Shown here: piece after piece, positions 2,099-3,063 of the stretch | How the letters are laid out: every line of letters begins with the position of its first letter | How positions within the stretch are numbered: the first letter of the stretch is position 1 | IMG/VR virus record: IMGVR_UViG_2778261069_000001 | Length of the DNA stretch: 6,317 nucleotides | Strand: one strand, 5' to 3' | Source of the DNA: a virus | Lineage: Duplodnaviria > Heunggongvirae > Uroviricota > Caudoviricetes | The notes under the pieces: generated by a model | What the model was told of the DNA's origin: nothing | The model's database searches: none | Seen by the model: the letters and a program-made list of their open reading frames with translations, nothing else | Translations under genes and position numbers: made by a program

Positions 2099-2539
2099 AT
2101 GAAAAAACTAACCTTTGAAATTCGATCTCCGGCACATCAGCAAAACGCTATTCACGCAGTACAGCAAATCCTTCCAGACCCAACCAAACCAATCGTAGTA
2201 ACCATTCAGGAACGCAACCGCAGCTTAGACCAGAATCGAAAGCTTTGGGCTTGCCTTGGTGACGTCTCTCGTCAGGTTGAATGGCATGGTCGCTGGCTGG
2301 ATGCAGAAAGCTGGAAGTGCGTTTTTACAGCAGCATTAAAGCAGCAGGACGTTGTTCCTAACCTTGCCGGGAATGGCTTTGTGGTAATAGGCCAGTCAAC
2401 CAGCAGGATGCGTGTAAGCGAATTTGCGGAGCTATTAGAGCTTATACAGGCATTCGGTACAGAGCGTGGCGTTAAGTGGTCAGACGAAGCGCGACTGGCT
2501 CTCGAATGGAAAGCGCGATGGGGAGATCGGGCTGCATGA
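2099..2539 (+). CDS. ninB: NinB (Orf recombination mediator family)
   Basis: Translation from ATG 2099 (MKKLTFEIRSPAHQQNAIHAVQQ...KARWGDRAA, 146 aa) matches lambda NinB. GGAG-type RBS (gggagagggaag) precedes 2099. The track's earlier ATG at 2081 lies inside the terminator T-tract and is unlikely to be the start. Confidence 0.93.
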   Translation: MKKLTFEIRSPAHQQNAIHAVQQILPDPTKPIVVTIQERNRSLDQNRKLWACLGDVSRQVEWHGRWLDAESWKCVFTAALKQQDVVPNLAGNGFVVIGQSTSRMRVSEFAELLELIQAFGTERGVKWSDEARLALEWKARWGDRAA

Positions 2540-3063
2540 CTATCAAATCAAATACGCCAGCACACGACAAGGACTGCTGGCAAACGCCGCTTTGGCTTTT
2601 TGATGCACTGGATATTGAGTTTGGATTCTGGCTGGATTCGGCAGCGAGCGACAAAAATGCTCTGTGTGCTCACTGGCTAACTGAGGCTGACGACGCGCTC
2701 AATTCTGAGTGGGTAAGCCACGGTGCAATCTGGAATAACCCACCGTACAGTAATATCAGACCGTGGGTGGAAAAAGCCGCTGAGCAGTGCATACAACAGC
2801 GACAGGCGGTAGTGATGCTTGTGCCAGAAGATATGTCTGTCGGCTGGTTCAGCAAGGCTCTGGAGAGCGTTGACGAAGTTCGCATTATCACTGATGGACG
2901 GATTAATTTTATCGAACCATCGACAGGGCTGGAGAAGAAGGGAAACAGCAAAGGCTCCATGCTGCTGATTTGGCGACCGTTCATCAGTCCTCGACGGATG
3001 TTTACTACCGTATCCAAAGCGGCATTGATGGCAATCGGGCATGGCGTCAGGAGGGCGGCATGA
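2536..3063 (+). CDS. Phage Dam-like DNA N6-adenine methyltransferase (orphan methyltransferase occupying the ninC/ninD position)
   Basis: 175-aa protein from ATG 2536 (ATGA overlap with ninB stop): [26 protein letters not shown]...IWNNPPYSN.... It carries the (D/N)PPY catalytic motif of amino-methyltransferases and the N-terminal W-x-TP / FD-x-LD signature I associate with the phage Dam family. No restriction endonuclease gene is adjacent. Confidence 0.8.

Follow-up and report, generated by a model that had tools for sequence, protein, structure and literature searches.

A phage Dam-family methyltransferase gene with a probable GATC target in the nin region of a lambda-like prophage

Introduction

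Which methyltransferase gene sits between ninB and ninE in a lambda-like prophage, and which DNA sequence is its product likely to modify? The locus lies in a 6,317-nucleotide stretch of viral DNA (IMG/VR record IMGVR_UViG_2778261069_000001), referred to here at its full length as the window; coordinates are those of the window, and features are on the plus strand unless stated otherwise. The gene, at 2536–3063, is of the dam type and is predicted from its open reading frame (ORF), from family profiles, and from its identity to orf32 of phage VT2-Sakai to encode a phage N-6-adenine DNA methyltransferase of 175 amino acids (aa) and 19.7 kDa. Our best explanation, to which we assign a probability of roughly 85%, is that the product is an S-adenosylmethionine (SAM)-dependent orphan phage Dam enzyme, orthologous to M.EcoVT2Dam and with GATC as its probable target, and that the gene is a module of the nin region.

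Family membership of the predicted protein

The dam ORF, read from the sequence, is intact, running from an ATG at 2536 to a TGA at 3061–3063. Its product matches PF05869 (“DNA N-6-adenine-methyltransferase (Dam)”) with an E-value of 3.4e-64 and 216 bits against a cut-off of 28.1, covering model positions 1–167 of 169, and matches no other Pfam family at E ≤ 1. The NCBIfam equivalog TIGR01712 (“phage N-6-adenine-methyltransferase”) is matched over the whole model (1–165 of 165) at an E-value of 1.2e-79, with 265.6 bits against a cut-off of 97.05. The PHROG match is phrog_111 (“DNA methyltransferase”), and the best PADLOC matches are two “orphan methyltransferase” models. Scores this far above chance confirm the predicted protein as a phage Dam family methyltransferase (PF05869/TIGR01712).

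Are the residues expected of such an enzyme present? Two motifs are read directly from the ORF: WQTP, a conserved N-terminal family motif (aa 15–18; 2578–2589), and NPPY, catalytic motif IV of the amino-methyltransferases (aa 68–71; 2737–2748). In addition, Asp34 (2635–2637), within an F-x-L-D-x-A-A motif, is probably the acidic residue that binds SAM, since it precedes NPPY in the order seen in gamma-type enzymes. When 1.84 billion cluster representatives were searched exhaustively with HMMER, 8,717 relatives came back at E ≤ 1e-3; conservation was assessed in an alignment of 40 family members of 32%–65% identity (alignment A2) and in a closer alignment of 34 sequences. T17, D34, N68, P70, R122, and F125 are invariant among the 40 members, and W15, P18, A37, N41, W59, P69, and Y71 are at least 90% conserved; NPPYS is invariant across the 34 closer homologs. 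The window protein keeps W15-x-T17-P18, D34, R122, and F125, such that the predicted sequence retains both its catalytic motif and the aspartate that probably binds the cofactor. The first-pass annotation had placed this 175-aa gene in the phage Dam family and had pointed to its NPPY and W-x-TP motifs; the profile search, the alignments, and the ORF bear it out on each count. A handful of database entries (P0002, P0005, P0011, P0016, P0024, and P0121; 233–370 aa) carry a Dam domain joined to NinE, to NinB, or to some other phage domain; they probably stem from frameshifts or from gene calls that run on across ATGA overlaps and are not genuine fusions.

How does the protein relate to better-known enzymes? 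A close parallel in family is the Dam protein of phage HP1 (orf13, 173 aa), which is 37% identical over 150 aa (E = 4e-32); the HP1 annotation lists no other methyltransferase. The two proteins are similar in size and share the NPPYS, W-x-TP, and LD-x-A motifs, although HP1 is P2-like and its orf13 is not a nin-region gene: it closes the rightward early gene cluster, with no annotated gene between it and the TR terminator. PMC7556043 counts the HP1 gene among the phage Dam-like genes and credits its cloning to Piekarowicz & Bujnicki 1999. The Dam enzymes of E. coli and T4 have the same chemistry, are likewise orphan enzymes, and would share the GATC target if the report on M.EcoVT2Dam applies here. 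However, they belong to the alpha class (PF02086), which has a DPPY motif and a target-recognition domain, whereas the window protein has 175 aa, NPPY, and no extra domain. Consistent with this difference, no PF02086 match was found at E ≤ 1 in the Pfam search, and a sequence search of the PDB matched no E. coli or T4 Dam chain, returning only chance matches (E of 0.7–1), so that no solved homolog is recognizable by sequence. Indeed, 175 aa in a single domain leave no space for a distinct target-recognition domain. A model computed with AlphaFold2 from the alignment of 34 sequences (mean predicted local distance difference test [pLDDT] 74.7; predicted template modeling score 0.76), in which residues 30–70 are poorly defined, would be compatible with a class I amino-methylating methyltransferase with a gamma-like motif order, i.e., an acidic residue before NPPY, as far as a moderate model with weak structural matches can show.

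Target specificity

What does the enzyme methylate? The protein is identical at 173 of 175 positions to orf32 of VT2-Sakai (NP_050531.1), with the two substitutions, T91A and Q169H, both at variable columns of the 34-sequence alignment. The orf32 protein itself recurs unchanged in Phi24B (dam, clone CM2; 100% identical), in Stx2 phage II, and in Min27. Like the window gene, orf32 is a 528-bp, 175-aa gene in a ninB-dam-ninE slot, but VT2 has the backbone of a Shiga toxin (Stx) phage whereas the window backbone is lambda-like (O, P, ren, ninH, ninI, and a lambda-type Q). Forde et al. (PMC6602927), citing Radlinska & Bujnicki 2001, call M.EcoVT2Dam of prophage VT2-Sa an orphan methyltransferase “known to target 5′-GATC-3′” and set it apart from the other Stx-phage Dam homolog, M.EcoGV. 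Because orf32 is the only DNA methyltransferase in the complete VT2-Sakai annotation, M.EcoVT2Dam and orf32 can be equated by elimination. A second methyltransferase was sought among orf3–5 of VT2-Sakai, which are unannotated early-left ORFs, and was rejected, as these gave DUF551 or nothing at all. Together, the near-identity to orf32 and the GATC report for M.EcoVT2Dam allow the target to be deduced with good, though indirect, confidence: the window enzyme is an apparent ortholog of M.EcoVT2Dam that most probably methylates the adenine of GATC. The first-pass annotation had held that no target could be deduced from the sequence alone; the 173/175 identity and the M.EcoVT2Dam report point to GATC as the probable target.

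The composition of the window was also considered. GATC occurs 16 times against about 31 occurrences expected under a second-order Markov model, with none inside the dam gene, and this deficit, which is in line with the known avoidance of GATC by enterobacterial phages, is suggestive but is no test of the specificity of the dam enzyme. CTAG is expected 5 times and occurs 0 times.

A module in the nin region

What surrounds the gene, and how does the arrangement compare with lambda? Upstream is ninB (orf; 2099–2539; PF05772, E = 1.1e-54; 98% DNA identity to lambda), and downstream is ninE (3060–3242; PF05322, E = 8e-44). The start codon of dam overlaps the ninB stop codon in the ATGA at 2536–2539, and the dam stop codon overlaps the ninE start codon in the ATGA at 3060–3063. 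Such ATGA packing has been described for all lambdoid nin regions (PMC8022706). Apart from dam, the genes of the window, identified with Pfam and about 98% identical to lambda at the DNA level, are O, P, ren, ninB, ninE, ninF, ninG, ninH, ninI, and Q.

In blastn comparisons, window 129–2539 corresponds to lambda 38674–41084, ending exactly at the ninB stop, and window 3067–5567 corresponds to lambda 42097–44596, starting 7 nt inside ninE. Between them lies a mosaic segment unlike lambda (2540–3066), in which 527 bp stand in place of the 1012 bp that carry ninC (290 aa) and ninD (57 aa) in lambda. Both junctions were inspected base by base: at the 5′ end, divergence from lambda begins right after the common GCTGCATGA, and at the 3′ end, similarity to lambda returns at ...GACAGCGACGAAG in ninE. 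The last 40 nt of ninB (2500–2539) differ from lambda by four substitutions and equal phage 434 base for base, so the dam module may in fact have recombined at a point inside ninB rather than exactly at the stop codon. Breakpoints at gene borders with ATGA overlaps are classic lambdoid nin-region mosaicism, and the dam segment follows this pattern as a nin-region module.

Three arrangements of the slot between ninB and ninE can be compared. First, the lambda arrangement, ninC-ninD, has the same position and ATGA-type junctions as the dam module but encodes unrelated proteins (NinC is annotated as PAPS-reductase-like) and spans 1012 bp versus 527 bp. Second, the arrangement with dam alone, as in the window, is found in phage 434, whose “DNA adenine methyltransferase” (CPT_434_59; UMO75323.1) is identical to the window protein at 171 of 175 positions and has the same ninB and ninE flanks. 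Phage 434 differs from the window in that it is without ninH and has a Q82-type Q, whereas the window keeps ninH (4014–4202), present as in lambda and skipped by the alignment to phage 434, together with lambda Q. Third, the Stx-type phage vB_EcoP_phi419 (PV189407) has a 200-aa homing endonuclease gene between ninB and dam (positions 902–1504 of locus L007), a third variant of the slot, described in its annotation as an HNH gene preceding dam.

How often is each arrangement seen? A full-length copy of the 528-bp dam gene, at 95%–99% identity, is present in 244 phage records, and in nearly all of them the annotation places it between NinB and NinE. The gene group of phage 434 extends to HK140, HK544, Sf101, mEp506, and many “Lambda_ev” isolates; all the phages named here are among the carriers in the 244 records, as are many environmental lambda-like isolates and many Stx1 and Stx2 phages. 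In bacterial genomes, the gene occurs in 1,562 of 5,426 complete E. coli genomes (roughly 29%), with up to five copies per genome, where its RefSeq name is “phage N-6-adenine-methyltransferase” and NinB and NinE flank it. By contrast with the 244 dam records, only 17 phage records have lambda ninC-ninD at ≥80% coverage, and most of these are of lambda itself or of laboratory hybrids. The earlier description of a single 175-aa gene in the ninC/ninD slot of lambda between ninB and ninE thus agrees with the blastn boundaries. Its wording that the gene “replaces” ninC and ninD fits a comparison with lambda but is lambda-centric, since the dam version is common and ninC-ninD is rare.

Expression and proposed role

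When would the gene be expressed? A tR2-like intrinsic terminator was located by a terminator scan between ren and ninB (2051–2084), and phage 434 has a terminator annotated at the corresponding site. Because dam is 3′ of this terminator, it should belong to the delayed-early part of the pR operon and need N antitermination, according to established lambda biology. A promoter scan gave no convincing internal promoter for dam, with a lone 9/12 match at 3065–3094 that is within chance expectation, and the window gave no hits in Rfam or tRNA scans. A GGAG Shine-Dalgarno sequence (2522–2525), 10 nt 5′ of the dam ATG, is contained in the 3′ end of ninB, and a ribosome-binding site is marked at the corresponding position in the record for phage 434; the GGAG overlaps a GATC site (2525). 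Judging from the position of dam, transcripts from pR would reach it only once N allows read-through of tR2, i.e., during lytic growth or induction, and its translation would be coupled to that of ninB and ninE through the ATGA overlaps. For the Phi24B protein, which is identical to orf32, there are published observations: dam was detected as a protein in lysogen cultures, and its pattern in quantitative PCR was linked to the lytic cycle, with a significant change on induction (PMC3342100).

What might a phage gain from a second Dam activity in a host that already has one? Host Dam leaves the virion DNA of lambda and P22 under-methylated, and one possible reason is that the enzyme cannot keep pace with replication (PMC8022706). 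Most likely, the phage enzyme would make good this shortfall in GATC methylation on fast-replicating phage DNA, giving fully methylated progeny genomes that would resist MboI/DpnII-type restriction, which cuts unmethylated GATC. Full methylation may also keep phage DNA out of the pathways that act on hemimethylated GATC, those of MutH and SeqA. A comparison of methylomes between a lysogen and a cured strain would be uninformative in a dam+ host, since host Dam already methylates about 99.9% of GATC sites and Dam homologs could not be distinguished in this way (Forde et al., PMC6602927), and since expression is linked to the lytic cycle.

Alternative explanations

How firmly can the proposed identity, target, and role be held? 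Several points count against them. First, M.EcoVT2Dam is identified with orf32 by elimination, and the GATC target of this exact allele is carried over from a protein that differs from it at two residues. Second, over-expressed Dam-like enzymes can give off-target GATC methylation. A relevant case is the MT-A70 “DNA adenine methyltransferase” of Stx phages, which a 2023 paper reports to need a partner protein and to prefer 16S ribosomal RNA (rRNA) (PMC10810198). Third, the structure model is only moderate: pLDDT is below 60 at about residues 31–50 and 61–70 and is 61 at residues 51–60, so confidence is low around the Asp34 stretch, and the Foldseek matches are weak (E ≥ 2e-3) and include RNA N6-methyladenosine enzymes. 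Fourth, the benefit in a dam+ host is one that we infer. Fifth, an insertion of the IS3 family of insertion sequences (IS) may reduce or abolish pR transcription in this element.

The last point leads to the alternative that survives best, albeit as an unlikely one: the gene may be intact but silent, a passenger methyltransferase without current activity in a prophage that the IS insertion has made defective. Window 1–127 is an IS3-family end that matches, at 100% identity, many E. coli copies bearing the annotation “IS3 family transposase.” The start of transposase orfA is the ATG at 73 on the minus strand, which begins MTKNTRFSPEVRQRAV... The IS end meets lambda-like sequence 13 nt before the O start codon, in place of the cII-O junction of lambda, so transcripts from pR would need to cross the entire IS element. 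The insertion could thus be polar on the O-P-nin-Q operon, including dam, and may mark a defective prophage. The exact IS3-O junction had no contiguous match among the 5,426 complete E. coli genomes. However, the dam ORF is intact, with all conserved residues kept and only two substitutions relative to orf32; many terminators do not stop an N-modified RNA polymerase; an IS element can itself carry promoters that point outward; and the remainder of the prophage is unseen. Moreover, silence would concern expression only and would be compatible with an orphan Dam enzyme as the identity of the protein.

A second alternative, which we consider very unlikely, is that duplex GATC DNA is not the natural substrate. 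The enzyme would instead act on RNA, on single-stranded DNA, or on DNA with relaxed sequence requirements, perhaps aided by a partner protein, and GATC methylation would be a side activity of over-expression. A more specific version, with a slimmer chance still, is that an enzyme without a recognition domain might act on RNA or on DNA intermediates of replication or packaging, whether single-stranded or hemimethylated, or might draw its specificity from a phage partner protein. The structure model is of no help here, as it leaves DNA and RNA substrates undistinguished. A small probability is kept for a non-canonical substrate because an MT-A70-type Stx-phage enzyme proved to be a 16S rRNA methyltransferase, a case that calls for caution with annotations resting on over-expression. 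That enzyme (M.EcoGV/M.EcoPA8orf6770P) is prophage-borne, like the window gene, and is annotated as a GATC N6-adenine methyltransferase, but it comes from a family unrelated to PF05869, has a DPPW motif, and is the fifth gene of its phage map (gp5). We considered whether the window gene could be that rRNA methyltransferase, published in Nucleic Acids Research in 2023, and rejected the idea, since the published protein is of the MT-A70 type with DPPW and is encoded by gp5 near int (PMC10810198). The window protein has no MT-A70 match in Pfam and has NPPY instead of DPPW, and METTL3-14 was matched at a Foldseek probability of only 0.12.

Is the orphan Dam enzyme truly without a partner? Pfam and PADLOC searches of all proteins of the 6.3-kb window found no restriction endonuclease among its genes, and none is annotated in complete VT2-Sakai, the bearer of a 99% identical dam gene. 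NinG/Rap is a recombination junction nuclease. The “HNH endonuclease” of phi419 was considered as a restriction partner and rejected, as it is a NUMOD4/HNH_3/I-HmuI-like homing endonuclease that is missing from the window. Hence, the idea that dam is the modification half of a restriction-modification system with its endonuclease outside the window, which draws on the mere 6.3 kb that are visible and on the phi419 annotation, is barely credible given the VT2-Sakai gene complement, the homing nature of the phi419 gene, the orphan models matched in PADLOC, and the fact that an endonuclease cutting unmethylated GATC would serve no purpose in a dam+ host. Orphan status, as judged on 6.3 kb of prophage, is strongly supported. 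The earlier statement that dam has no partner endonuclease therefore stands for the window and for the VT2-Sakai annotation but is unproven for the whole prophage.

Mosaicism downstream of Q

The window has a further joint beyond the nin region. The match to lambda stops at 5567, a few bases past the −10-like TAAATT hexamer of pR′ and downstream of the lambda-type Q. From 5598 to 6317, the window is 97.7% identical to the late-operon leader of phage 434 and the start of a “putative membrane protein” gene. Lambda Q and pR′ are thereby paired in the window with the late leader that follows a Q82-type Q in phage 434.

Functional implications

What does the gene tell us about the nin region? As a discovery it carries little weight, given that a near-identical protein has already been cloned and assigned GATC specificity and that the classical phage 434 carries the gene. 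The gene module is already known: it is routinely annotated, very common, and already characterized, and it is a standard interchangeable module of the nin region. With dam in 244 phage records and ninC-ninD in 17, the dam module is the common occupant of the slot between ninB and ninE, and it is lambda that is the exception.
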